This document shows, piece after piece, positions 1-15,905 of a stretch of 22,430 bases of DNA. The stretch lies in UHGV virus genome UHGV-0073206; one strand, written 5' to 3'. The first letter of the stretch is position 1. Each line of letters starts with the position of its first letter. The notes beneath the pieces are model-generated. The model saw only the letters and a list, made by a program, of their open reading frames with translations. It did no database searches and was not told where the DNA came from. This stretch comes from a virus. The translations under genes were made by a program, and so were the position numbers.

Positions 1-864
1 ATGAAGAACACAAGTAAGTTCCAGAATGTAGTGATTGTCACTATTGTCGGTTGGCTTGTGTTGTTTGTCTTTCTGCCCAACCTGATGATCATTGGCACCA
101 GCTTTTTGACCCGCGACGACGCCAGTTTCGTCAAAATGGTCTTTACGCTGGATAACTACACGCGTCTGCTCGATCCGCTCTATTTTGAAGTGCTATTGCA
201 CTCGCTGAATATGGCGCTGATCGCCACCCTCGCCTGCCTGGTGCTGGGCTACCCGTTTGCCTGGTTTCTGGCGAAGCTACCACACAAGGTGCGTCCGCTG
301 CTGCTGTTTCTGCTGATTGTTCCCTTCTGGACCAACTCACTGATTCGCATCTACGGGCTGAAAATTTTCCTCAGCACCAAAGGCTATCTCAACGAGTTTT
401 TGCTCTGGCTGGGCGTTATCGACACACCAATTCGTATCATGTTCACGCCCAGTGCGGTGATTATCGGTCTGGTTTACATTCTGCTACCGTTTATGGTGAT
501 GCCGCTGTACTCCAGTATCGAAAAACTGGATAAGCCGTTGCTTGAGGCGGCGCGCGATCTCGGTGCCAGCAAGTTACAGACTTTTATCCGTATCATTATT
601 CCACTGACGATGCCGGGAATTATTGCCGGATGTCTGCTGGTGATGCTGCCAGCGATGGGCCTGTTCTATGTATCCGACCTGATGGGCGGTGCGAAAAACC
701 TGCTGATCGGTAACGTCATCAAGGTCCAGTTCCTCAATATTCGTGACTGGCCGTTTGGTGCAGCCACCAGCATTACGCTGACTATCGTAATGGGCCTGAT
801 GTTGCTGGTTTACTGGCGCGCTTCTCGTCTGCTGAATAAGAAGGTGAGCGAAATAGATGATTAA
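1..864 (+). CDS. potB: Spermidine/putrescine ABC transporter permease PotB (host gene)
   Basis: 287-aa ORF beginning at window position 1 (MKNTSKFQNVVIVTIVGW...), multi-pass hydrophobic protein with ABC-permease EAA-type loop (LLEAARDLGASKLQTFIRIIIPL); recognised as E. coli PotB. No potC follows; sequence downstream is AT-rich non-coding then phage genes, so the last few codons may be insertion-derived. Confidence 0.9.
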   Translation: MKNTSKFQNVVIVTIVGWLVLFVFLPNLMIIGTSFLTRDDASFVKMVFTLDNYTRLLDPLYFEVLLHSLNMALIATLACLVLGYPFAWFLAKLPHKVRPLLLFLLIVPFWTNSLIRIYGLKIFLSTKGYLNEFLLWLGVIDTPIRIMFTPSAVIIGLVYILLPFMVMPLYSSIEKLDKPLLEAARDLGASKLQTFIRIIIPLTMPGIIAGCLLVMLPAMGLFYVSDLMGGAKNLLIGNVIKVQFLNIRDWPFGAATSITLTIVMGLMLLVYWRASRLLNKKVSEIDD

Positions 865-1263
865 TCCTTTATATTCAATGAAATAAGTTAGTTTTTAAAG
901 GGTTTTGTTGTTGAAAGAAACAGTATTGTATATTTCACCAAAATCAATCAGTTGCGTTCTAGTTTTGGAGAATGTTTTTTGAGGCTTTTTGTTAAAGCTT
1001 GTTATGCATTGCCTCAATTAATAACCTTTTTCCCAGCCCTCCCAACCGTTAAAAAGTCGGGAGGGCTTCAGGCACCAGTTGCAATTGATTTATTGGCCAA
1101 TACCAAACGCTCGGATTGAACCCAAATCCCCCAGGTTATTCAGTTCTTCCTTCATCTCCCGCTGACGTTGATAAATCTCGTGATTGCGATCGACCTGCGC
1201 CTGCGCCACCTGTCAGCGCACCTGATATCACTACAGACATAGTTTTTCTCGCGATAAATTAAA

Positions 1264-1794
1264 TCAGGAAGAGGCTTCCGGAGAGACGGGCCATTCAATG
1301 GCGTTATATGAGGTTTTATCAGTGATGGTGCTGAAATCCATCGCCTGCAGCGATTTCGCGTAAATGCGCCAGACTGTCAGCTTTTCTTTTTCTTCATCAC
1401 CGATGATTCCCAAAAGTAAATCCGTCTTCTTATCGGATATTTCCCGTTCGGCAATCGCAGTAAGACGTGCACGCTCCGACTCTGCCTGCTGCCTGTAGTC
1501 AACAGGGACCGGTAGTACTTCACCGTCTTTATAATACCAGCGCGCCTCTATACAAAAGCCATCCGGTAGTTCATCCACTTCCACAATGGTAAAACCAACG
1601 GGATAAAGACGGGATACATCTTCCGCCACGGAATAAATAACGCCGGTTTCAGGATGCGTGCACAGCTTGTATTTCTTCGTGAATTTATCCAGTGATTCAT
1701 AAAAATCCTGCCCGTCTTCACTACGGAAATACTGAATGCCGTCACCATAAGGCATGTCTTCAGGGTAGTAACGCGTAATGTTTGAGAGTTCCAT
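1264..1794 (-). CDS. Phage tail fiber assembly protein (Tfa family)
   Basis: Start at internal Met (MELSNITRYYPE...) preceded by strong SD AAGGAG; C-terminal region (...DLLLGIIGDEEKEKLTVWRIYAKSLQAMD...IEWP) resembles tail fiber assembly chaperones. The listed ORF 1264..1830 is an N-terminal over-extension. Confidence 0.65.
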   Translation of the reverse strand: MELSNITRYYPEDMPYGDGIQYFRSEDGQDFYESLDKFTKKYKLCTHPETGVIYSVAEDVSRLYPVGFTIVEVDELPDGFCIEARWYYKDGEVLPVPVDYRQQAESERARLTAIAEREISDKKTDLLLGIIGDEEKEKLTVWRIYAKSLQAMDFSTITDKTSYNAIEWPVSPEASS

Positions 1795-1808
1795 TATTTT
1801 CTCCTTAA

Positions 1809-2813
1809 TTAACCTGATACAGATCGCCATGCACCATTAATATAAATCTGAGCCTGTTTGTAATACACGCCACCGATATTGTCTGCAGAGTTACGGCCAG
1901 TATCCTGAACATTAATGCCTGACAAAACACAACCAGAAGGTGCTCGAAACGTCCAGCTGTGCTCGTTCTGGTCCTGAGTAAACGTGACTTCCGAAACAAG
2001 CAGTTCGGTATTGTCGAAACCACAGACCGGATCAAAGACAATCACCCGCTGGTTGGGTTGCCACAGCGTACCGTTACCCTGTCGCCAGCCCTGCACCACA
2101 TAGGTGGTTTCATCCGTCCGCGCCGCCCGTTGCCGGGCTTCAAAGTCAGCACGCGCAATACAGCCTGCCCCCGTAGCCTGCCCTGTCTGCCTGATATACA
2201 TCGGACGGTAACGGGCAATAAATGCGTCCTCTGTGCGGGCCCTCAGCGCGGTGGTGGTGGCCTCACCGAAATCATCGTCGTTTCCGGCACGCTGCCCCGC
2301 CACCTGGTAAACAGAAAACCGCTCCCGGATACTCTTCTCCGTATCGCAGGAAAGGATGTTTTCCCCGAGCACCAGCGCAGTATGCGCCCGCGTTGAGCCA
2401 ATACCGCCAATCACCAGCCTGCCGTGCGGGTCGTCGTAAGCCAGTGCCTGCTGCTGACCGAGTATTTTGTTGATTACCTCAATCACCGTTTCACCATGAT
2501 CGGGCTGGACGTCAGGAATAACACCCGACGGCGCACCGCTGTTCACCACCTCAATGCCGAAGGGCGCAGCAAGCGCCTGCGCAATCTGTACCAGCGATCG
2601 TCCGTTAAACTGTGTCGGTTCGGCTGCACAGTCAATCAGGTCAGCAGTCAGACTACGTCCGGCAATACCGGTGCTGACCGAACGGGCATCGTAACGAACG
2701 GGGGTCGCCTCCACCCAGCCGGTGATCACCAGTTCATCACCAATCAGCACCTCCACTTTTGAACCGTTTTTAATGCGCGGCTGAAGCGTGGTGATACCCC
2801 AGCTCGCGGACAT
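1809..2813 (-). CDS. Phage tail/baseplate protein (Mu gpP / late-control-D-like), probably a truncated or fused remnant
   Basis: 334 aa from Met with weak SD (GGGAAAG); soluble beta-rich composition typical of myophage baseplate proteins; lies between the tail tube gene and tfa where tape measure, baseplate and tail fiber genes would be expected. Family assignment is from recall and is weak. Confidence 0.4.
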   Translation of the reverse strand: MSASWGITTLQPRIKNGSKVEVLIGDELVITGWVEATPVRYDARSVSTGIAGRSLTADLIDCAAEPTQFNGRSLVQIAQALAAPFGIEVVNSGAPSGVIPDVQPDHGETVIEVINKILGQQQALAYDDPHGRLVIGGIGSTRAHTALVLGENILSCDTEKSIRERFSVYQVAGQRAGNDDDFGEATTTALRARTEDAFIARYRPMYIRQTGQATGAGCIARADFEARQRAARTDETTYVVQGWRQGNGTLWQPNQRVIVFDPVCGFDNTELLVSEVTFTQDQNEHSWTFRAPSGCVLSGINVQDTGRNSADNIGGVYYKQAQIYINGAWRSVSG

Positions 2814-2898
2814 CTTTCCCGGTGGGCTCATCAAACTCCAGTACGGAGAGTGTCTCGCCATGAGCGGTAATCGGTTTCTTTAACTCAAGCTCTTTCAT
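2770..2898 (-). pseudogene. Tail assembly chaperone fragment (42 codons: MKELELKKPITAHGETLSVLEFDEPTGKDVREL...)
   Basis: ATG overlaps the tube gene stop (TAATG) as in sheath-tube-chaperone modules; the frame terminates after 42 codons and overlaps the next ORF, consistent with a deletion removing the frameshift chaperone extension and the tape measure gene. Confidence 0.3.
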
Positions 2899-3254
2899 TA
2901 CTGGTAATCCCCTTCTTCACCGTGGAACTCAAGATCGACCGTGCCTTCTTCGGCATTATGGTTCGCTTCGCCGTGCAGCCAGGCAGACGACAGTACATAG
3001 ACCTGACCGTTCGCCAGCTCGGCAGTGATGGTCATCTCATCAGACGAGGTGATTTTGCTCACCGGAAAATTCTTCGGCACCTTGAAGGTCCCTTTGACAT
3101 AAGGCGCACGGTGAGTTTCCTTGCGGTCCACTGAACCGTCCAGGCCGATGATGTCATCATTGACCGTCCTGTTCATGGGCACCTCAATGCCGCCGGTCAG
3201 TGATAGCTGCTGACCGTCAATTTTGAAATAACAGGTTCCCCCGATACGGGCCAT
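2898..3254 (-). CDS. Phage tail tube protein (Mu gpM-like size)
   Basis: 118-aa ORF immediately downstream of the sheath fragment with start overlapping its stop; size and position match contractile-tail tube proteins. Confidence 0.5.
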   Translation of the reverse strand: MARIGGTCYFKIDGQQLSLTGGIEVPMNRTVNDDIIGLDGSVDRKETHRAPYVKGTFKVPKNFPVSKITSSDEMTITAELANGQVYVLSSAWLHGEANHNAEEGTVDLEFHGEEGDYQ

Positions 3255-4030
3255 TATGCAGACTCCTCTGAATACTGAAGACGGAACTGGTTAACCACGG
3301 CAAAGACACGCAACTGGTTAACATAGTCAGGCGGGAACAGCGTGTTCAGGCGGTTCGGATCGCTGGCATCACGCTCCACAACCAGGTACTGCTTGAACAG
3401 TTCGTAGTTTTCCACGATCCCCGCACGCTCGAGCTGACGGTAGGTTGCCAGCAGTTCCCCTTTGATCACCGCCGGGGTGACAATCGCCTGACCGGGACCA
3501 AAGCGGGTACCGTCACTGGCAAGCTTGTGACGCCCGTACTTACTGGTAATGACGGATTTCAGTTTGCGCAGTACATACGCGCTGGTATGCAGCGTCTCGC
3601 TGTCGAGGTAGCTGTTATCCGCAACCCCGTAAGCGTTTTTCCTGTACGTGGTGACATCACGCTGAATGCGCAGCACCCCGCTTTCGACATACGCCGTTGC
3701 CACGCCATGAGACAGCAGGGTCTGCTGCTCGGTCATTGTGAACCGTTTCCCCTTCGGCGCAGGCAGCATACCCACCAGCTCACCGGTCTGCGTGGGACGT
3801 GCCGGATCGTTGCGGATAAACACTGCCGCGCGGGCGGTACGGCTGGCTGCCAGCTCGTCGGCAGGCGTCTGGGTGTCTTTTTCGTACCCCGCCAGGGTAA
3901 TGTGCTGCTGGTTAAACTGGTCACCTGCGGTCACCAGTTCTGACAGCGTGCCGGTCTTTGCCGTATACACATGACCATACAGCTGACGCGCATAGCTCCA
4001 GCGACCGCTGGTATCGTTCATCTCGGTCAC
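3254..4030 (-). pseudogene. Tail sheath protein, C-terminal fragment
   Basis: 258-aa ORF directly upstream of the tube gene; sheath proteins are normally larger than 350 aa; the 5' end overlaps the out-of-frame tail of the terminase fragment, indicating a deletion junction near 4030-4090. Confidence 0.5.
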
Positions 4031-4595
4031 CGTCCTCCGGACGGCTCATGCTTTGAGCATGTACTTCAATACCAAATGCTTCACGCAATGGCTCCGTGCG
4101 TTGCGCCATCAGTCTGGCTGGACGAAAAACTTCCCACGCCTGTTTCTCTGTTGTGGCCCCGGAATACACTTCAGCGCCAAATTCATCATCGCAGGCAAAC
4201 ATATACAGACCAACGCCAGCAGACATTGCTGATTTCCCGTTTTTACGGGGTATTTCGTTGTAAGCCTCGCGAAATCGACGCAGACCGCTCTTTTTTCTCA
4301 CCCACCCAAACACAACACAGATACAGAACAACTGCCAGGGTTCAAGCGTAATGGGCATCCGCTTAAATGCCCACTCCCCTTTGGTGTGTGGCAAAAGCTG
4401 GATAAATTTCGCCACCCGCTCAGCTTTATCTTTATCAAATTTAAACGGATAGTTTTTTTTAACTGAATTTTCCAGGTCATCAAGGTGACGCTGGCAGGCT
4501 AGAACGACATAACGGCAAACCTGAATTTTTCCGCGAACCACGTCACGTGCATACTGATTTGCGGCATTAACGTTCACGTAATTTTTTCGTGTCAT
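3921..4595 (-). pseudogene. Terminase large subunit, N-terminal fragment (truncated)
   Basis: N-terminal ~180 aa ([20 protein letters not shown]...PITLEPWQ...[19 protein letters not shown]...) look like TerL and its ATG overlaps the terS stop; thereafter the frame carries low-quality sequence and ends at 3921. Full TerL would be more than 500 aa. Confidence 0.6.
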
Positions 4596-5062
4596 AGGTT
4601 TTTAAATGGATTATCGCTCCCCTGCTTCGGCGTGATAAGCCGCTGCCGACTGGCAGGATCGAGTCCTAATAAACTACCGAATGTCACCATTTGTCTGGCG
4701 GCCTCATTTGCCGCCGTGAGTGCCGGGTTTTTCTTTGGCCCCGCCTCACTCTCTACCGTAATCCCAACGCGCATAACCTCCTGCTGCGACTCATGCCAGT
4801 TGCGAAAAGCAGTGCAGAATGCAACGACGTTGTGCAAATCAGTAACATAAAGAACTCGCTGGGCACAGAGCTCACGAATAATGGTGTCCCACATATGACG
4901 AGCGGTTTCATCAAACCACTCGGGAGGCTCAGCATGGGTGATCGGCGTGAATTTTGGTTCAAACTTATTTAATGCCCGCTTGCCGGGATTGCCTGCCAGT
5001 TCCTTACGGGTAGTCGGCTTCGGCTTTCTCCCTCTTCCGGGCGCAACAGATTTTTCTGACAT
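4592..5062 (-). CDS. Phage terminase small subunit (P27 family-like)
   Basis: 156 aa, basic N-terminus ([21 protein letters not shown]), positioned immediately upstream of and overlapping TerL, downstream of an HNH endonuclease as in HK97-type packaging modules. Confidence 0.7.
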
Positions 5063-5085
5063 GTCAAATCCTGAAATTTTTAATT

Positions 5086-5165
5086 TCGCGGGTGTAAAAA
5101 TTTGACGAGGCGGGCGGTCCCGGACAGCCAGGGCTGCAGGGATTTGCCCCGCCCCTCCCTACAAG
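5086..5165. other. Candidate cos/packaging recognition region upstream of terS
   Basis: Intergenic GC-rich element (GGCGGGCGGTCC...GCCCCGCCCC) with partial dyad symmetry next to an AT-rich stretch, between the HNH and terS genes where cos sites lie in HNH-dependent cos phages. Confidence 0.25.
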
Positions 5166-5177
5166 TGAGAATAATTA

Positions 5178-5528
5178 TCACCTGATTCGTTCGCGCGCTG
5201 TTTTCGCTTTATGGCAGGGCCAGCACAGACTCTGCAGGTTGCTGTCTGCGTCTGTTCCGCCATGCGCTTTCGGGATGATGTGGTCGACGGTTTTCGCCTC
5301 GCTCACCACACCGGCACGCAGACACAACTGACACAGACCTTTATCGCGCTTCAGAATACGGGCACGAATCACCGTCCATTTTGAGCCATAGCCACGCTGG
5401 TGGCGGCTCAGTCCGCGCTGGTGCTGCACCCAGCCTTCACCACGATGTTTACCACAGTAGCCAGAACTGTCTGTTGTTGTGCCTGCGCAGCCTCGCTTAC
5501 GACAGGCGCGGGGGATCCGTGATGGCAT
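5178..5528 (-). CDS. HNH endonuclease (packaging-associated)
   Basis: Start at Met (MPSRIPRACRK...) preceded by SD AAGGAG; HNH motif DHIIPKAHGGTDADSNLQSLCWPCH and cysteine-rich N-terminus; sits upstream of terS. Confidence 0.75.
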   Translation of the reverse strand: MPSRIPRACRKRGCAGTTTDSSGYCGKHRGEGWVQHQRGLSRHQRGYGSKWTVIRARILKRDKGLCQLCLRAGVVSEAKTVDHIIPKAHGGTDADSNLQSLCWPCHKAKTARERIR

Positions 5529-5590
5529 TGGAATCTCCTTAATACCGACATTATCGCAGCCCCTCACTGAAGAGCTGCTGTAATGCCTGT

Positions 5591-5698
5591 TACTCACGAA
5601 TCAATCGAGCATGTTGACCGCTCATTTCAATGCGTAAGTATTGTGGCTTGCCGTCAATCAACGCGGTGATTAACTTATCACCTGTAGGTTTCCACATA
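5591..5698 (-). CDS. Small hypothetical protein (35 aa, MWKPTGDKLITALIDGKPQYLRIEMSGQHARLIRE)
   Basis: Not in the ORF track (below its size cutoff); ATG preceded by SD AGGAGA at good spacing; fills the gap between the lipoprotein gene and the HNH gene. Confidence 0.3.
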
Positions 5699-5870
5699 AT
5701 TTTCTCCTGTTTTAATGCCCCTTGCCGCCGGGCAGTTGATCAAAGTTCATCTTGATTCGGCAAGATTTAGAATGAATAAGATAAAATTGGCACACGCAGC
5801 AGAATTTCATGCTTTCCGGACGCTGACGCACCCTTCATTTTTCAGCAAAATATTCTGCTCTTACAGGCGA

Positions 5871-6053
5871 TCAGTTCTGCAGACACTGCCGAACACCGTC
5901 GACAATTTCACAGACCTGAGACGCGGTATCGAAAAGCTGGCGCGCCTTATCCAGGCTGACGCACCCCACCAATAAAAAAGGCACCAGTATCGCTACCAGT
6001 GCCCGTTTCACCGCCGTTCGCGGCATTCTGTGTGTCCAGTGTTTTCGCGCCAT
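5871..6053 (-). CDS. Small lipoprotein (signal peptide with lipobox LLVGC)
   Basis: 60-aa ORF with basic N-terminus, hydrophobic core and LVGC lipobox (MARKHWTHRMPRTAVKRALVAILVPFLLVGCVS...); ATG lies 1 nt after the stop of the upstream 37-aa ORF. Confidence 0.45.
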   Translation of the reverse strand: MARKHWTHRMPRTAVKRALVAILVPFLLVGCVSLDKARQLFDTASQVCEIVDGVRQCLQN

Positions 6054-6054
6054 A

Positions 6055-6168
6055 TCACCACCAACGCACAGCCCAAATCAGAACAGCGACCGCCACAAGG
6101 CGAATTGCAAAGGCCGCAGCCCTTGTCAAATCAAGGCTCGCGGGAGTTTCCATTTCAATACCTTTCAT
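6055..6168 (-). CDS. Small membrane protein (37 aa, one TM: AAAFAIRLVAVAVLIWAVRWW)
   Basis: Short ORF downstream of the endolysin terminator, translationally coupled to the lipoprotein ORF; below the ORF-track cutoff. Confidence 0.35.
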   Translation of the reverse strand: MKGIEMETPASLDLTRAAAFAIRLVAVAVLIWAVRWW

Positions 6169-6260
6169 AATGGACAACCTCAAAAAGAATCTTTTATACT
6201 TTCCCACGAGGATTTTCTCCGTACTCACTAATCACAATTTCCCCTTTGACGTGAAAACTA

Positions 6261-6298
6261 AAAACCCCGGACTGTTCCCCCAGCCGGGGTTTTGTTTT
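6261..6298. terminator. Bidirectional rho-independent terminator after the endolysin gene
   Basis: Stem CCCCGG(A)CTG / CAGCCGGGG flanked by A4 on one side and TTTTGTTTT on the other, giving a U-tract in either orientation. Confidence 0.6.
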
Positions 6299-6300
6299 AC

Positions 6301-6684
6301 TTATCGCTTCAGCTGAAAGTGAGGTCCGTCTTTCAGCGTTTTCCAGTCCCCGCCCCATTCGATAGCGATCCCCAGCTCTGCGGCAGCCTGCTTAAATGCC
6401 TGTGCGATTTTCTCGTACAGAGGCCACTCCCATGACACCTGACTGCCAATGTAGGCCACAACATCCACCGCATCACCGGTCAGGTGGCGGCTGTTCATGG
6501 TCTGGCTTTTCCCTTCCGCAACCAGCTGTTTCTGGCGATACTTACTGCGCAGGCCTTCCGTAATACCGAAATCAACCTCCGTCAGCTCCAGCGCACGGCG
6601 AACTACAGCAACCAGCTGTGGTTTGACACCCTCCAGATTTTTTTCACTGCGACGGCTGAATCTGAATTTACCCGGCATATTCAC
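6301..6684 (-). CDS. Endolysin, peptidase M15 family (L-alanyl-D-glutamate peptidase-like)
   Basis: 127 aa; motifs SRHLTGDAVDV and WGGDW...H match zinc-binding residues of M15/VanY-type phage endolysins; ATG overlaps the stop of the upstream membrane protein (ATGA). Confidence 0.8.
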   Translation of the reverse strand: MNMPGKFRFSRRSEKNLEGVKPQLVAVVRRALELTEVDFGITEGLRSKYRQKQLVAEGKSQTMNSRHLTGDAVDVVAYIGSQVSWEWPLYEKIAQAFKQAAAELGIAIEWGGDWKTLKDGPHFQLKR

Positions 6685-6956
6685 CTCAACAATGGAAAGA
6701 TTTTTGTGACGTTCCCGCGTGCGCGTATCACCAGCACGCAGAACAGCAGATTAAAAAACACTTCCAACCAGCCCGTTGCTAACGGGCGACCACACAGATA
6801 GCTGAGGGGCGCAAAGGCATACAGCAGCATCAGCAGCCAGGCCAGCCATGACACCAGCGGTTTATGCCTGGAATCACGGCGACGATAAAAAAAGAGCGTC
6901 AGCACGATAACCGCGCATAACGCCACATTCAGCAATCCGGGAAGGTTACTTAACAT
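6681..6956 (-). CDS. Holin/antiholin-like membrane protein
   Basis: 91 aa from Met MLSNLPGLLNVALCAVIVLTLFF..., 2-3 predicted TM segments; ATG overlaps the upstream holin stop and its stop overlaps the endolysin start. Confidence 0.5.
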   Translation of the reverse strand: MLSNLPGLLNVALCAVIVLTLFFYRRRDSRHKPLVSWLAWLLMLLYAFAPLSYLCGRPLATGWLEVFFNLLFCVLVIRARGNVTKIFPLLR

Positions 6957-7338
6957 TGCCGCCTCCTCCACCCCGCAGGCGGGAGAACACACCGGACACC
7001 AGCGATGCAATATCCTGCTGGTGGATGAACGAGAGAATCTTCACCGACACCACCGAGACCAGCACCGCGCAAAGCGCATCTGCTGATGTAGCGTCATACC
7101 CTGTTTTTGATGCAATCCAGGCTGACAGCACACGCGCTCCCAGCACGCCGACAATAAACGACACCAGAAAATGTGCCACCACGCGCCAGACTGAAAGTGA
7201 CTGTGGCATTGTTGCCACAAATAACGCCCCGGCGAACGCGCCAAACACAATCCCGAAATCCATCCCGGTAAACAGCCCGAATACCGTCGCGCCACCCAGC
7301 GCCGCAGCCGTGCCGGAACCGGATAAGGGTTCAGACAT
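6946..7338 (-). CDS. Putative holin
   Basis: 130 aa, Gly/Ala-rich hydrophobic segments (FGLFTGMDFGIVFGAFAGALFVA), strong SD AGGAGGAAGT before ATG; first gene of the lysis cassette. Confidence 0.5.
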   Translation of the reverse strand: MSEPLSGSGTAAALGGATVFGLFTGMDFGIVFGAFAGALFVATMPQSLSVWRVVAHFLVSFIVGVLGARVLSAWIASKTGYDATSADALCAVLVSVVSVKILSFIHQQDIASLVSGVFSRLRGGGGGNVK

Positions 7339-7394
7339 ACTTCCTCCTGAAAATAAAAAAGGGCCACCAGCGACCCGTAAAAAAACACCCCGTC

Positions 7395-7416
7395 AAAGGC
7401 ATCCGCAGATGCCTTT
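7395..7416 (-). terminator. Hairpin (possible weak terminator or processing site) between the cargo cassette and the holin
   Basis: Perfect hairpin AAAGGCATC-CGCA-GATGCCTTT; the U-tract on the minus-strand transcript is displaced by 9 nt, so terminator function is uncertain. Confidence 0.3.
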
Positions 7417-10909: not shown

Positions 10910-11065
10910 TTACTCCTCAGGTTCGTAAGCTGTGAAGACAGCGACCTCCGTCTGGCCGGTTCGGATTCGTACCTCGCAGAGGTCTTTCCTCGTTACCAGT
11001 GCCGTCACTATGACGGTTAAACAGATGACGATCAGGGCGATTAACATCGCCTTTTGCTGCTTCAT
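10910..11065 (-). CDS. hok: Hok/Gef-family type I toxin (51 aa)
   Basis: MKQQKAMLIALIVICLTVIVTALVTRKDLCEVRIRTGQTEVAVFTAYEPEE: single TM helix followed by the conserved C...R..GQ/T.EV.A...YE motif of Hok/Gef toxins. Confidence 0.85.
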   Translation of the reverse strand: MKQQKAMLIALIVICLTVIVTALVTRKDLCEVRIRTGQTEVAVFTAYEPEE

Positions 11066-11122
11066 AGCCTGCTTCTCCTTGCCTTTCGGCACGTAAGAGG
11101 CTAACCTACATTTGTGAGACAT
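10910..11122 (-). CDS. mok: Mok-like N-terminally extended frame overlapping hok (translational-coupling ORF)
   Basis: 70-aa in-frame extension (MSHKCRLASYVPKGKEKQA + Hok); the size relationship matches recalled mok/hok pairs. Not independently verifiable here. Confidence 0.35.
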   Translation of the reverse strand: MSHKCRLASYVPKGKEKQAMKQQKAMLIALIVICLTVIVTALVTRKDLCEVRIRTGQTEVAVFTAYEPEE

Positions 11123-11241
11123 AGATTGGGCCTCAGATTAATGTTAAGCGTCTTGCAGGACGCGTAATGTTAACTGGGGCTTTTCTCTATCTGCCTTTTG
11201 GTGTTCATGCCTGAGACAGATAGCCTCAAGCACCCGCAGTT

Positions 11242-12313: not shown

Positions 12314-12488
12314 TTTGTTCTTCCTCTTCGTCTTTTATTTCGTGATATGAGTAATTGCAGTAGTTAAAGAAAATATCTTTTGCTTCGTCATGTATTTCAT
12401 CAGGCGTCGCATCATCATCCACTTCGAATTCATCCTCGAAATCTCCACCGGCTATTCCCGTTTCAATAATTATTTTAAACTTTCGCAT
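12306..12488 (-). CDS. Small highly acidic protein (60 aa)
   Basis: MRKFKIIIETGIAGGDFEDEFEVDDDATPDEIHDEAKDIFFNYCNYSYHEIKDEEEEQNG; Asp/Glu-rich throughout; a GC hairpin (GCCGCCCGAAAGGGCGG) sits between a distal SD-like AGGAGG and the ATG. Confidence 0.45.
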   Translation of the reverse strand: MRKFKIIIETGIAGGDFEDEFEVDDDATPDEIHDEAKDIFFNYCNYSYHEIKDEEEEQNG

Positions 12489-12581
12489 TTAACTACCGCC
12501 CTTTCGGGCGGCCTCCTGATGTTCTGAGGGTGCAGAAATCCCTCCGGTTAAGGATTAAATTTTTAACAGAGCTAAATTTAA

Positions 12582-12938
12582 TTATTCAGTTCTGGATTTT
12601 GTCGCCCTGCGTATCCGCGCTTTCGCGTTACGCTCAATCTGAATTAGCTTTTCTATATTTTTTCGCCTTTCCCGCTCCTCCTGACGCAAGAGCCTTACAT
12701 CATCTGCCAGTCTGGTTTCTCTTTTCGCCACAGAGAGCATCCAGTCAAATGGCTCCACAACTGCACCGCAGATTTTACAGCGGACCTGACGCTCTTTTTC
12801 GTCAACCCGGACAGAGGCGTGATGACAATATGGTCTTTCCGATGGCTCATAAAGAAAATTAACCTGATTACGAGGGTCATCCTCTTTTACCGGAAATAAA
12901 ACGATATTGCTTAACTCATCCTCTGGTTTTATTTCCAT
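12582..12938 (-). CDS. Hypothetical protein with zinc-ribbon-like C-H...C-x2-C motif and Arg-rich coiled-coil tail
   Basis: 118 aa; PYCHHASVRVDEKERQVRCKICG then RLLRQEERERRKNIEKLIQIERNAKARIRR; no confident family. Confidence 0.5.
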   Translation of the reverse strand: MEIKPEDELSNIVLFPVKEDDPRNQVNFLYEPSERPYCHHASVRVDEKERQVRCKICGAVVEPFDWMLSVAKRETRLADDVRLLRQEERERRKNIEKLIQIERNAKARIRRATKSRTE

Positions 12939-13018
12939 GCTCCTCTCCTTTGATGCGAATGCCAGCGACGCGTAATGCGTGTTCTAGGTCAATCAGGTAA
13001 AGCCAACTGCCATTTTCT

Positions 13019-13213
13019 TTAGGTACCCGAACGATTCAGGATTTTTTCCACCCGCAACTGGCGATTCTGGCGGTTGATCTCCTCGCTACGTTTTCGCCCT
13101 TCTGCCAGTTGCCACTCGCGCCACTCGTCCACTGTCCGGTACGGCGCGATTACATGCTGCGGGGTCAGCTTACGGATACGCTCAAGAACACCACCTGTCG
13201 CGATATTTTTCAT
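13019..13213 (-). CDS. Hypothetical small protein (64 aa)
   Basis: ORF immediately downstream of the replication gene, Arg-rich C-terminus; no recognised family. Confidence 0.4.
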   Translation of the reverse strand: MKNIATGGVLERIRKLTPQHVIAPYRTVDEWREWQLAEGRKRSEEINRQNRQLRVEKILNRSGT

Positions 13214-13219
13214 GGCCCG

Positions 13220-14185
13220 TTACCCCCTGAACCCCGGCGGAATTTCGGTATCCGGCTCAGAAATATGATTCACGCAACGCTGTACAGACGAACGCCCCAG
13301 GCGGATAACCAGTTCATCCCATTTTTCGCGAAGCTTTGACGGACTCATGATATTTTTTACCCAGAATGGATCCCGCTGCGCCCGACCAAACATTTCACAA
13401 ATTTGTCTGTGAGTTCTGCCATCCAGCATCCGCATTGTGCGCACGTCGTTGGCCCATGCGGTCCAGTTGGGTTCTTTCGGTCGCGAAATCTCGCCATCAT
13501 CGCTGGCGGCCTGCTCGTAAAGACTCACGATTCGTCCCCAGATCCACTGCGCACACGCCAAATCTTCCTGGTTGCCCCACTGGCGTTTTTTTGCACTGAA
13601 CACAACCGCGTCAGGGTGTCGGGTTAAAAAATCCTGTTCAACCGTCTGCGGGTCCGGTTGCGAAGCTTCCGGACGAGAAGTGTTTTTATTCTCTGTAGTA
13701 ATCTCTGTTGTATTCTCTGTAAGATCATCAGGCCATTTTGACCCGATGACATTGAGTCGTTTTGAACCAATGGAACGTGCCATTTTGGCCCCTTCCATCG
13801 TGTCATTCTGACCTGATGGAGCAGCGCATTTTGACCTGATGGATTCGCTCACTTTGCCACCATTTAAAAGCTCGCTCTCGTAATTAATCGTGTAAAAATT
13901 AGTCATATCACGCTTTGATTTATTGAGCTTTTCGCAACGCAAAAGCCCCAGCGTTTTCAGACTTGCAAATGCGCGTTTTAACGTTGACTCTGACCAGAAC
14001 GGGAACTGCTCCAGCCATTGTTCTGTTGTGTTATAAATCCAGCGAACACCATCACATTCCATGCCGGAACCGGTATCTCTCAACCAGTAATGCAACTGCT
14101 GCAACACGATGGCTTCGTTCAGACCAATTTTCATCGCCAGCTGCGTGTTTATAACCAGCGGACGTTCAGCAAAAAGGAGCTTCAT
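13220..14185 (-). CDS. Phage replication initiator (lambda O-like replisome organiser) with internal origin repeats
   Basis: 321 aa; N-terminal HTH-like region (LNEAIVLQQLHYWL) typical of phage replication initiators; the central low-complexity stretch (TENTTEITTENKN) is encoded by DNA repeats as in the lambda O gene; lies after cro/cII-like genes. No helicase-loader gene follows. Confidence 0.65.
   Translation of the reverse strand: MKLLFAERPLVINTQLAMKIGLNEAIVLQQLHYWLRDTGSGMECDGVRWIYNTTEQWLEQFPFWSESTLKRAFASLKTLGLLRCEKLNKSKRDMTNFYTINYESELLNGGKVSESIRSKCAAPSGQNDTMEGAKMARSIGSKRLNVIGSKWPDDLTENTTEITTENKNTSRPEASQPDPQTVEQDFLTRHPDAVVFSAKKRQWGNQEDLACAQWIWGRIVSLYEQAASDDGEISRPKEPNWTAWANDVRTMRMLDGRTHRQICEMFGRAQRDPFWVKNIMSPSKLREKWDELVIRLGRSSVQRCVNHISEPDTEIPPGFRG
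13683..13870. repeat. Candidate origin of replication: 3 copies of TTCTCTGTA-like repeat and about 6 iterons (~23-bp period, core CATTTTGACCYGATGG) with adjacent AT-rich segment
   Basis: Seen directly: ATTCTCTGTAG / ATCTCTGTTG / ATTCTCTGTAA at 13686-13722; iterons CCATTTTGACCCGATGAC, CGTTTTGAACCAATGGAAC, CCATTTTGGCCCCTTCCATC, TCATTCTGACCTGATGGAG, GCATTTTGACCTGATGGATTC, TCACTTTGCCACCATTT at 13733-13870; AT-rich 13861-13920. Confidence 0.55.
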
Positions 14186-14206
14186 CCCCCCCCCCAGAAC
14201 ACGTTA

Positions 14207-14632
14207 TCAATGCGCCACCACGGCATTTCCCGCCGGACCACCACGATTCATCTGATCGAACAACACGATCGCTGCCGCAACAAACTCATCGATATCTTTC
14301 ACCAGGCGCTCCCGTCGCTCGACAAGCTCCCGGTGATATTCCGAACTGTGGCTGCGCATTCGGGCCACCAGTGGAGGCGGCATTGCTTTTTCGATCGCCG
14401 GTAACAACGCCTGAATTTTTTTAACCGCATCAGGGGTGTCTTTTTCTACCCAGCGGAAAATTTTCTGGGTATTACGAGACAGGGCTTCCGGATGGCTGTC
14501 GTCATACAGTTCAGGAAACGTCATACCCAACTCAAAATAAGCCTGGGTTATTCCAGCTACTGGAACTTTTTCGCCATCAGGACGCGCCCAGGCATTCATC
14601 GCCATGCGGATGTGTTCATGCTTGATTTTCAT
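14207..14632 (-). CDS. YdaT-like protein (CII-analogous regulator family, Rac-type)
   Basis: 141 aa beginning MKIKHEHI..., matching the recalled YdaT N-terminus and size; follows and overlaps the YdaS-like gene. Confidence 0.6.
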   Translation of the reverse strand: MKIKHEHIRMAMNAWARPDGEKVPVAGITQAYFELGMTFPELYDDSHPEALSRNTQKIFRWVEKDTPDAVKKIQALLPAIEKAMPPPLVARMRSHSSEYHRELVERRERLVKDIDEFVAAAIVLFDQMNRGGPAGNAVVAH

Positions 14633-14888
14633 GAATCAACTCCGGTGCATTTGATGTGTTAACCTTGAATCCAACAGGTAAACCGTCGGTTGGGTTAGGA
14701 TAAATATCAGGGCGAATTTCATGCGGGGTAACTTCCCACTTCATTAGCTGACATAACGGAATTACCTGCTTTGGGGGAACGTCAAAGCTAAACCATTGCC
14801 AAACTGTCTGTTGAGCGACCCCCATATAACGACCTATTTCAGCTTGAGTGTATTTCTGCCTAATTTTTTCGCGAGTGCTATCTAGCAT
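14616..14888 (-). CDS. YdaS-like Cro-type HTH regulator
   Basis: 90 aa, HTH (TQAEIGRYMGVAQQTVWQW) and EV.P.EIRPDIYP segment resembling Rac YdaS; divergently oriented to the repressor gene across an operator-containing intergenic region; SD GAGGAGAG. Confidence 0.65.
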   Translation of the reverse strand: MLDSTREKIRQKYTQAEIGRYMGVAQQTVWQWFSFDVPPKQVIPLCQLMKWEVTPHEIRPDIYPNPTDGLPVGFKVNTSNAPELIHENQA

Positions 14889-14925
14889 TTTGCTCTCCTC
14901 TAAAAAACTATAAGCAAAACCTACA

Positions 14926-14959
14926 ATAAAAAACTGTACACAATCAACAGTTTTTTATT
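14926..14959. promoter_or_regulatory. Operator-like inverted repeat in the divergent repressor/cro-like promoter region
   Basis: AATAAAAAACTGT-ACACAATCA-ACAGTTTTTTATT; same half-site (AAAACTGT / ACAGTTTT) as the repeat at 15962-15992. Confidence 0.5.
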
Positions 14960-14997
14960 GTGATGCTTTTAACAGTATTTACCTGTAAAATTGAATA

Positions 14998-15399
14998 ATG
15001 ATGAACGCCCTAGAAGTATCTATGTACAGAATCAGCAAGCTTCTTCAGGAAACTGGATGGAGCCAGGCTGAGCTTGCCCGTAGAATTGGTGTGACACAAC
15101 AAACTGTTCAACAATGGGTCAGCGGTAAGGCTACACCTAAAGCCTCAAGTTTGGATAAACTGGTTGAGGTTACAGGGCATCCATTGCATTGGTTTTTATT
15201 GCCTCCTGAAGAGGGGGAGCAAATTTTCACCCCTGACACGATGAAAATTGGTCCTCGTCAACGCGAACTGCTCCAGGCTTTTAGTGCGTTTCCAGAGGAA
15301 GACCAAGAAAAAATGCTTCAAGAAATCAAAGACAAGAAAAAATCAATGGAAGAAACCATTGCCCGGTGGTTGGCGGCACAAAAAAGCCGCCGGGCGTGA
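14998..15399 (+). CDS. XRE-family HTH repressor (PaaR2/RacR-like), candidate prophage repressor
   Basis: 133 aa; HTH (GWSQAELARRIGVTQQTVQQWVSGK) then HPLHWFLLPPEE; occupies the cI position divergent from the cro-like gene and directly upstream of the antitoxin/toxin pair. Confidence 0.75.
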   Translation: MMNALEVSMYRISKLLQETGWSQAELARRIGVTQQTVQQWVSGKATPKASSLDKLVEVTGHPLHWFLLPPEEGEQIFTPDTMKIGPRQRELLQAFSAFPEEDQEKMLQEIKDKKKSMEETIARWLAAQKSRRA

Positions 15400-15426: not shown

Positions 15427-15618
15427 ATGAGTACAGCCCTTTCTCCGATAGTTTCAGAATTCGAAACTACCGAACAAGAAAACAGTTACAACGAATGGTT
15501 ACGCGCTAAAGTGGCGTCAAGCCTTGCAGACCCTCGTCCCTCAATTCCACATGATGAGGTAATGGCTGAAATGGAGAATCTTATTGCTCAAATTGCTGTA
15601 ACTAACAGGAGCGAGTAA
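15427..15618 (+). CDS. paaA2: PaaA2-like antitoxin
   Basis: 63 aa; SPIVSEFETTEQENSYNEWLRAKVASSLADPRPSIPHDEV matches the recalled PaaA2 antitoxin of the PaaR2-PaaA2-ParE2 module; SD AGGAG 9 nt upstream; stop overlaps the toxin start (TAATG). Confidence 0.7.
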   Translation: MSTALSPIVSEFETTEQENSYNEWLRAKVASSLADPRPSIPHDEVMAEMENLIAQIAVTNRSE

Positions 15619-15905
15619 TGTTACCCATTTTGTGGCTACCATCTGCTCGCGATGATTTGCGTCAGATCGTAGCCTATATTGCTAAGGAAAATATTCCTGC
15701 AGCACGCAGACTAAAAATACGGATTGAAACGTCTGTTTTAGCCCTCTCTGAGCATCCATATCTATATCCGCCAAGTGATCGAGTATCCGGTTTGCGGGAA
15801 ATTGTGGTTCACCCTAATTATATCGTTTTGTACCGAGTAGCAGCTTCAAGCATTGAAATTGCAAATATTGTGCATGCCCGCCGACAATTTCCCTTCCCTA
15901 TCTGA
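15618..15905 (+). CDS. parE2: ParE/RelE-superfamily toxin (ParE2-like)
   Basis: 95 aa; ParE-like features (DDLRQIVAYIAKENIPAARRL...LSEHPYLYPPSDRVSGLREIVVHPNYIVLYRV); translationally coupled to the antitoxin. Confidence 0.8.
   Translation: MLPILWLPSARDDLRQIVAYIAKENIPAARRLKIRIETSVLALSEHPYLYPPSDRVSGLREIVVHPNYIVLYRVAASSIEIANIVHARRQFPFPI

Follow-up and report, generated by a model that had tools for sequence, protein, structure and literature searches.

The initiator gene and its embedded repeats

The virus genome UHGV-0073206 was analysed as a single stretch of 22,430 nucleotides (nt), termed the window throughout, which appears to represent an E. coli-type prophage. Its minus strand carries a phage replication initiator gene, and two families of DNA repeats lying within that gene form the candidate replication origin described here. 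The features of this module are listed below.

13220-14185, minus strand: initiator gene ('O-like', replisome-organiser type), 321 codons plus stop, intact (open reading frame listing)
13862-14185, minus strand: predicted N-terminal winged-helix DNA-binding domain (N-domain), residues 1-108 (AlphaFold2, Foldseek, homologues)
13301-13648, minus strand: predicted helical C-terminal domain (C-domain), residues ~180-295, related to lambda O (tblastn, AlphaFold2)
13223-13285, minus strand: DnaT-like C-terminal tail VQRCVNHISEPDTEIPPGFRG, the last 21 residues (phmmer, BLASTP, hhalign)
13725-13865, no strand: iteron array, six 25-nt dyads at 23-nt spacing (repeat search, dyad scoring)
13725-13749: iteron, 9/11 internal dyad matches
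13749-13773: iteron, 7/11 internal dyad matches
13772-13796: iteron, 9/11 internal dyad matches
13795-13819: iteron, 9/11 internal dyad matches
13818-13842: iteron, 6/11 internal dyad matches
13841-13865: degenerate iteron, first in gene order, 4/11 internal dyad matches
13685-13722, no strand: three 12-nt units, on the gene strand ACAGAGAATACA / ACAGAGATTACT / ACAGAGAATAAA, then an A-run; proposed unwinding or helicase-entry element (repeat searches)
13861-13920: second AT-rich, low-stability segment, on the N-domain side of the iterons; 32% G+C, encoding the end of the N-domain
13019-13213, minus strand: truncated helicase-loader gene of YdaV/DnaC type (the stump), in which 63 native codons are followed by a single codon from the junction and a stop (NCBIfam, BLAST-type comparisons)
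13025/13026: deletion junction, a clean homology break with ~2.4 kb missing relative to E. coli SHP24

The initiator was matched over its full length by PHROG 391, 'replication initiation O-like' (E 9.8e-96; residues 18-321 against profile positions 13-298 of 298), and its gene was identical at 966 of 966 nt to the copy in E. coli SHP24. The protein database held 4,259 relatives at E ≤ 1e-5; the best 120 of these were without a source name or were called 'hypothetical protein' and the like, and carried no Pfam domain over the initiator part. Scanning the initiator against NCBIfam returned no domain family apart from a weak match to the DnaT tail. Comparison with phage genomes by tblastn revealed a mosaic protein, in which residues 183-294 were 40% identical to lambda O (residues ~183-294, E 3e-18), residues 1-134 were 44-46% identical to the N-terminal part of Staphylococcus phage 'replication initiation / DnaD-like' proteins, and residues 1-141 were 51% identical to Pantoea phage AH07 gp45. 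The N-domain itself was 46-51% identical to those of Staphylococcus phage StauST398-3 gp16 and Pantoea phage AH07 gp45. The initiator thus appears to combine a non-lambda winged-helix N-domain with a lambda-O-like C-domain and a DnaT-like tail.

An AlphaFold2 model (mean predicted local distance difference test score, pLDDT, 59.6) placed folded regions at residues ~10-108 (pLDDT 70-84), with the helix and strand pattern typical of a winged helix, and at residues ~180-295 (pLDDT 60-79), all-helical save for one short hairpin. Between them, residues 109-173 were modelled at low confidence (pLDDT ~30), and this linker corresponds approximately to what the iterons (residues 107-154) and the 12-nt units (residues 156-167) encode. 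The best Foldseek matches of the N-domain were the N-domains of RepA-type plasmid initiators (4pql, 5kbj, 4pt7; E 0.03-0.08; 16-17% identity), followed by winged-helix regulators. On the model, assignment of the N-domain as a winged helix is reasonable, and the specific link to RepA is weak.

Within the iteron array a repeat search returned five copies at 13732-13849, with start-to-start distances of 24, 23, 23 and 23 nt. On the gene strand each iteron reads as an 11-nt half-site (sCATCrGGTCA) that returns in inverted form after a 3-nt A-rich centre. Approximately 2.75 of the 11 internal dyad positions would match by chance, and on the counts listed above five iterons are convincing and one is degenerate. 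The core CATTTTGACCYGATGG, with up to three mismatches allowed, was matched four times in the 22.4-kb window, in every case within 13734-13842, against 0.52 matches expected window-wide. With a spacing of 23 nt the iterons use all three reading frames and the peptides they encode differ, so they are not peptide repeats. Two short open reading frames (ORFs) that run across the repeats, one at 13572-13811 on the plus strand and one at 13624-13806 on the minus strand, are contained in the conserved initiator gene and were treated as incidental.

The close relatives, namely E. coli TD225-C4 and SHP24 together with phage PhiR42_1 (initiator 93.5% identical to that of the window), have their iterons at the same position in the gene, where these keep the consensus and vary at single bases. 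Further away, Pantoea phage AH07 carries GGGCAAATTGCCC-type repeats and Staphylococcus phage StauST398-3 carries GGACAAAATGGCC repeats, both at 23-nt spacing, while phages 720R4 and P7641, in which the N-domain differs and the lambda-O-like C-domain is kept, carry 15-nt TCTGACNCRTCAAAA repeats. The sequence of the iterons thus appears to track the DNA-binding domain, as expected for initiator sites, and the architecture appears to stay constant as the N-domain diverges.

Downstream of the iterons in the direction of the gene, Tandem Repeats Finder identified a repeat at 13690-13721 (period 12, 2.7 copies, 85% matches), and a repeat search resolved it into three 12-nt units (12-mers) at 13687-13722 with identities of 100, 83 and 92%. 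Matches to the 12-mer in the window comprised the three in tandem and one elsewhere, against 0.78 expected. The units are in frame, encoding TENT/TEIT/TENK, and the block is 28% G+C with an A-rich coding strand (69% purine). The two least stable 36-bp windows in the gene were 13683-13718 (dG -39.8), which ranked first, and 13875-13910 (dG -40.1), which ranked second, against a mean over the whole window of -49.5 (standard deviation 4.0), and the iteron array lies between them. An earlier note on this DNA had described three copies of one repeat, about six iterons of ~23 bp and the AT-rich stretch at 13861-13920; each was found again at or near the position given there, and all are borne out by the values above. 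The repeats also proved to be kept in homologous initiator genes, the opposite of the outcome on which that note would have abandoned its proposal of an origin.

An exact search of viral contigs for two adjacent 12-mer units (ACAGAGAWTACWACAGAGAWTAC) gave at least 120 contigs. Among those listed, the motif mostly lay in the middle of an ORF of ~300 codons, directly after repeats of varied sequence, and many of these ORFs had N-domains too diverged to be linked to the window initiator by phmmer. To avoid ascertainment on DNA, 80 homologues were gathered by protein patterns, with one genome per species; the set includes Escherichia, Citrobacter, Pantoea, Xenorhabdus, Pseudomonas and Acinetobacter, and also Bacillus, Neobacillus, Anoxybacillus, Staphylococcus and Limosilactobacillus. 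At least one ACAGAGAWTAC unit (up to one mismatch) was present just after the iterons in 59 of the 80, and the density of units there was 3.1 per kb, compared with 0.016 per kb over the remainder of these loci, both strands being counted. Some units are spaced 11 nt apart and so read R-D-Y rather than T-E-x-T. Among 105 T-E-x-T peptides in the linkers, the first threonine was encoded by ACA in 103 (background 25%), the glutamate by GAG in 102 (background 43%) and the last threonine by ACA or ACT in 103. The synonymous positions of the 12-mers are frozen, which argues for selection on DNA.

On these counts, conservation of ACAGAGAWTAC as DNA reaches across related initiator genes, from those of Enterobacterales to those of Bacillaceae and Staphylococcus, and the 12-mers seem to be the most conserved part of the origin. 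Their probable role is in unwinding or helicase entry, and they may be recognised as single strands. No description of the unit was found in open-access full text. That ACAGAGAWTAC stays constant while the binding sites of the initiator change would mark it as the part of the origin read by something common to all these systems, and it offers a simple sequence tag by which such origins can be located.

The start of the initiator gene shows variation of its own. A run of 10 G residues on the gene strand (14186-14195) abuts the initiator ATG; with G11 in TD225-C4 and G9 in SHP24, the ribosome-binding site is variable in run length, and the PhiR42_1 initiator has no G-run before its ATG. Database proteins of 448 residues (P0004, P0005, P0008) consist of a YdaT-family part joined to a 93-94% identical initiator, and may be gene fusions, or else variants that arose by frameshift or annotation near the G-run of variable length. 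Metagenome bins labelled Veillonella parvula, Bacillota and Collinsella (L211, L212, L263) also contained N-domains with 96-97% identity to the E. coli-type initiator; wrong binning of enterobacterial contigs seems a likelier explanation than true hosts of these kinds.

The candidate origin compared with known systems

In lambda O, as in the window, the origin is situated inside the initiator gene, between the parts encoding the two domains; in the window the repeats span residues 107-167. The lambda order is four iterons at residues 116-146, an AT-rich segment at residues 147-162 and the C-domain from residue ~183, and the window order of N-domain, iterons (residues 107-154), 12-mers (residues 156-167) and C-domain from residue ~183 is colinear with it. 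In both systems dyad-symmetric iterons are followed, in the gene direction, by an AT-rich segment that is A-rich on the coding strand, and the C-domains are homologous (40% identical). The window differs from lambda in the sequence of its iterons, 25-nt dyads at 23-nt spacing, in an AT-rich part built of sequence-conserved 11/12-nt units, in the DnaT-like tail, which lambda O lacks, and in the loader of its relatives, a DnaC/YdaV-type AAA+ protein where lambda has P. Of the traits of a lambda-type module, then, the intragenic origin, at least four dyad iterons, the AT-rich segment after the iterons and the C-domain homology were found, whereas a Phage_rep_O N-domain and a P-type loader immediately downstream were not. 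The lambda O/ori-type organisation suggested in the earlier note can be retained for the embedded origin and the order of the domains; its AT-rich element has to be moved, however, as the equivalent of the lambda region is the 12-mer block rather than 13861-13920 on the N-domain side of the iterons.

Gene order and the YdaS, YdaT and YdaV families are shared with the Rac prophage (E. coli K-12 ydaS-ydaT-ydaU-ydaV), and the full SHP24 loader is 80.6% identical to Rac YdaV. Rac YdaU (DUF1376) is unrelated to the window initiator save for its last ~22 residues, and was rejected as an initiator homologue because it shares the tail only. A scan of Rac ydaU conducted as for the window found no comparable iteron array.

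The best structural matches of the N-domain, the winged-helix proteins 4pql, 5kbj and 4pt7, are initiators of RepA_N-type plasmids of Gram-positive bacteria, solved with DNA. In plasmids of this type, too, the iterons lie midway along the rep gene. By sequence profile the window initiator contains no RepA_N domain, and the likeness is a weak one of fold.

In Staphylococcus phage 80alpha, ORF20 and ORF21 are required for autonomous replication and suffice for it, and ORF20 cannot be complemented in trans (PMC5499656). ORF20 is an organiser whose gene contains the annotated origin. It is followed by the DnaC-like ORF21, which is 31% identical to the SHP24 loader, an order of initiator and loader shared with the window's relatives. 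The layout of N-domain, short iterons, AT-rich stretch and C-domain is also comparable, with the difference that the AT-rich part of 80alpha is a plain A/T run lacking ACAGAGAWTAC units. ORF20 was rejected as a homologue of the initiator, as BLASTP found no similarity to the window protein; 80alpha supports the general mechanism by analogy only.

We consider that the segment is a phage theta-type replication origin, set within an intact initiator gene at the place where it codes for the disordered linker joining two folded domains, and assign this reading a probability of about 0.85. Derepression would lead to transcription of the operon of cro-like, cII-like and initiator genes. Dimers of the winged-helix N-domain would then bind the five or six dyad iterons to form a nucleoprotein complex, which would destabilise the adjacent low-stability DNA, most probably at the three ACAGAGAWTAC units, one strand of which may be recognised specifically. 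The lambda-O-like C-domain and the DnaT-like tail would bring in the complex of DnaB and its loader. The ancestral loader would be the phage YdaV/DnaC-type protein that is still present in the prophage with the identical initiator gene (SHP24); as the module now stands without a full-length loader, firing would need host DnaC, or the stump might still contribute.

Several points weigh against this reading. Origin function, the site of unwinding and binding of the initiator to the iterons are all inferred. A Pfam scan of the initiator gave no family at E ≤ 0.01, Phage_rep_O and RepA_N included, and the tblastn alignment to lambda was confined to residues 183-294, with no detectable similarity between the N-domain and that of lambda O. 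The RepA-type resemblance is weak at its E of 0.03-0.08, and the AlphaFold2 model was built from a shallow alignment, with 18 sequences at ≥70% identity. The 12-mer conservation counts take no account of shared ancestry or horizontal transfer of the module, and of the two AT-rich flanks of the iterons the data do not decide which one opens. A consensus scan of 12400-15100 found no sigma-70-like promoter (3.0 expected by chance), and so neither places the operon promoter nor shows origin-proximal transcription. The same scan gave no support for a promoter inside the origin and a single, weak terminator-like site inside the cII-like gene, and Rfam returned no RNA family in or near the origin segment.

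That a phage initiator gene can contain an origin is textbook knowledge, and the present case, in a prophage undergoing decay, is an unremarkable variation on a known type. An intact origin and initiator in a defective prophage can cause local over-replication once the repressor is lost. What is worth pursuing further is the cross-phylum conservation of the 12-mer at the DNA level and the pattern of DnaT-like tails.

Loader loss, the DnaT-like tail and competing explanations

The earlier note had seen no recognisable helicase-loader gene downstream of the initiator. This has to be corrected, since the ORF at 13019-13213, which begins 6 nt past the initiator stop codon, is the remnant of a YdaV/DnaC-type loader. 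It corresponds to residues 1-63 of 248 in NCBIfam PRK12377 (DnaC-like ATP-binding protein; E 5e-32), matches the NCBIfam DnaC equivalog (E 8e-10), and is 82.5% identical to residues 1-63 of Rac YdaV and 33% identical to residues 3-60 of E. coli DnaC (E 1e-13). The region aligned to DnaC 3-60 is what we take to be the DnaB-binding N-terminal part of DnaC, so it holds no ATPase domain. A complete AAA+ DnaC-like loader is accordingly missing beside the window initiator, the ATPase domain having been deleted, whereas TD225-C4 and SHP24 have a complete loader gene of 248 codons after the initiator. The stump retains its start codon and a GGGGG stretch upstream, and may be expressed, in which case it might either aid DnaB loading or poison it.

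Relative to SHP24, the deletion at 13025/13026 took the rest of the loader, the DUF1627, DUF977 and DUF4406 genes and part of an ead/Ea22-like gene; past the junction the window runs into the ead/Ea22-like gene that is sited ~2.4 kb further on in SHP24. No microhomology above 1-2 bp was found at the junction. The loader was thus lost by deletion, with its 5' end surviving, and because the initiator gene is identical to that of SHP24 at every base, the deletion looks recent or the gene maintained.

The deposited complete phage genomes PhiR42_1, 720R4, P7641 and AH07 each carry a related initiator with no DnaC-, P- or DnaB-like gene beside it. That PhiR42_1 is a propagated phage we infer solely from its GenBank record (complete genome, host ECOR13) and the cited temperate-phage panel. 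A search of viral contigs by N-domain alignment retrieved near-identical E. coli-type copies only, and was used for counts of downstream genes, not for diversity, which was sampled from the genome collection. Among the 80 contigs with N-domains 96-100% identical to that of the window, a DnaC-like gene lay directly downstream in 14, and no loader was present within 400 to ~885 nt in 63; the stump was found in none of the 80. Initiators nearest to that of the window (98-100% N-domain identity) normally have a loader. Genes resembling lambda P follow two distant homologues only.

The tail peptide of the initiator, VNHISEPDTEIPPGFRG, has equivalents in DnaT and YdaU, and closely resembles the C-terminal end (the last ~20 residues) of DnaT, a primosomal protein of the host. 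It matched the DnaT chains 2ru8, 6aep and 9zbt_D in a phmmer search of PDB (E 1.5e-4 to 3.9e-4), and 17 of 32 residues were identical to K-12 DnaT (E 2e-8 by BLASTP; E 4e-6 by hhalign). A DnaT-like nature of the whole C-domain was rejected, as the last ~30 residues alone align. A tail of the same kind ends the 720R4 initiator and AH07 gp45, whose C-domain is different, a more diverged tail (..ENSGFRT) ends the P7641 initiator, and the otherwise unrelated Rac YdaU ends in ..PDSAIPPGFRG (L292, 3415-3477). The pattern ..SEPDxxIPPGFRG is thus shared by several unrelated phage initiators (loci L210-L249). A loader or helicase gene was present within at least 600 nt downstream in 0 of 23 tail-bearing initiators, as against 24 of 52 tail-less ones (Fisher p 2.4e-5 without phylogenetic correction; 75 species-level homologues with enough downstream sequence), and all tail-bearing loci are Enterobacterales or metagenome bins of near-identical enterobacterial sequence.

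It is plausible that the tail is a recruiting peptide for DnaC-type loaders, its partner being host DnaC for 'solo' phages and YdaV where the module is of Rac type. If so, this would explain why tail-bearing initiators usually come without a loader gene. No relevant account of the tail peptide or of loader-less 'solo' initiators was found in open-access full text. The way in which DnaB/DnaC is recruited by DnaT is described as unknown in a 2026 paper on preprimosome structure (PMC13377028), and the tail pattern would give a concrete handle on how DnaT connects to them.

Loss of the loader raises the question of present function. One explanation is that the module is a dead remnant: without a full-length YdaV/DnaC-type loader, DnaB would not be loaded and the segment would have no present function. 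The loader has indeed been cut to 63 codons, the prophage has lost a number of genes that its 42-kb relative in TD225-C4 has, those for capsid, portal, large terminase and tape measure among them, and the initiators closest to that of the window normally have a loader. On the other hand, initiator and origin are base-identical to those of a loader-bearing prophage, with no decay visible; 63 of the 80 viral contigs, and four complete phage genomes with related initiators, show no loader gene beside the initiator; and the DnaT-like tail offers a possible route to the host DnaC-DnaB complex. We regard inertness as a serious contender, standing at rather less than even odds, and the rest of the weight goes to some residual capacity to fire. 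The replicon may use host DnaC, in line with the host dependence that the earlier note offered as one possibility; this option gains indirect support from complete phage genomes in which a related initiator has no loader gene beside it, and from the DnaT-like tail of the window initiator.

A bolder proposal has two separate parts. In the first, ACAGAGAWTAC would be more than AT-rich DNA of a generic sort, acting in cis and by its specific sequence in a large family of phage origins that spans phyla; in the second, the DnaT-like tail would be a host-mimicking peptide that recruits the loader. The cis element could, for example, serve in strand-specific recognition of single-stranded DNA or as a helicase-entry site, comparable to the binding of Rep to a single strand of plasmid unwinding repeats or to DnaA-trios, and the tail (..IPPGFRG) may let enterobacterial phage initiators recruit host DnaC or phage YdaV. 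Both parts together are a speculative and, on balance, unlikely combination; were both true, the truncated module could still fire via host DnaC.

A second alternative accepts the origin and moves the site of unwinding to 13861-13920, with the 12-mers serving as a host-factor site or as a linker that matters at the peptide level. The stability calculation is compatible with this, since 13875-13910 is practically as unstable as the 12-mer segment (dG -40.1 vs -39.8). By gene direction, however, 13861-13920 lies on the opposite side of the iterons from the AT-rich region of lambda, and it encodes the conserved end of the N-domain, ..KSKRDMTNFYTINYESELL.. (DMTNFYTINY), so that it is AT-rich because of its K, N, Y, I and F codons whatever the function of the origin. 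Conservation at the DNA level sits instead in the 12-mers. Unwinding at 13861-13920 in place of the 12-mers is therefore improbable, although the segment may add to opening of the DNA.

That the segment is no origin, and is a by-product of a repetitive low-complexity linker or a set of operators for autoregulation of the initiator, fits the in-frame 12-nt units (TENT/TEIT/TENK) in a predicted disordered linker, but is highly improbable given iterons in three frames that encode different peptides, are dyad-symmetric and co-vary with the DNA-binding domain, 12-mers with frozen synonymous positions and some units in another frame, and an architecture like that of the experimentally defined embedded origins of lambda and 80alpha.

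Prophage context and neighbouring genes

Upstream of the initiator lie other genes of its operon and, divergently, the repressor gene.

14207-14888, minus strand: upstream genes, in the same rightward-type operon as the initiator
14207-14632, minus strand: cII-like YdaT-family gene (Pfam YdaT_toxin; PHROG 163 'CII-like')
14616-14888, minus strand: cro-like YdaS-family gene (Pfam YdaS_toxin)
14998-15399, plus strand: divergent repressor gene (Pfam HTH_3)

The prophage is inserted between potB and potC, and genome comparison placed its 42-kb relative in TD225-C4 at the same site. Several stretches of that element, with genes for tail, capsid, portal and terminase, are absent from the window prophage. 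From its gene content the window prophage is a defective, decayed prophage of E. coli type that has lost most of its virion genes. Across window positions 1-7400, the comparison with the 42-kb relative gave a patchwork of short shared blocks, with junctions near 987/1123, 1968, 2799 and 4031.

Two toxin-antitoxin loci were also recognised. A RelB/RelE-family pair (15427-15905) directly follows the prophage repressor gene, an arrangement found alike in relatives. A hok/sok-type locus lies at 10910-11235, where an Rfam match to sok RNA (11060-11235, minus strand, 120 bits) overlaps a Hok-like ORF of 70 codons (10910-11122).

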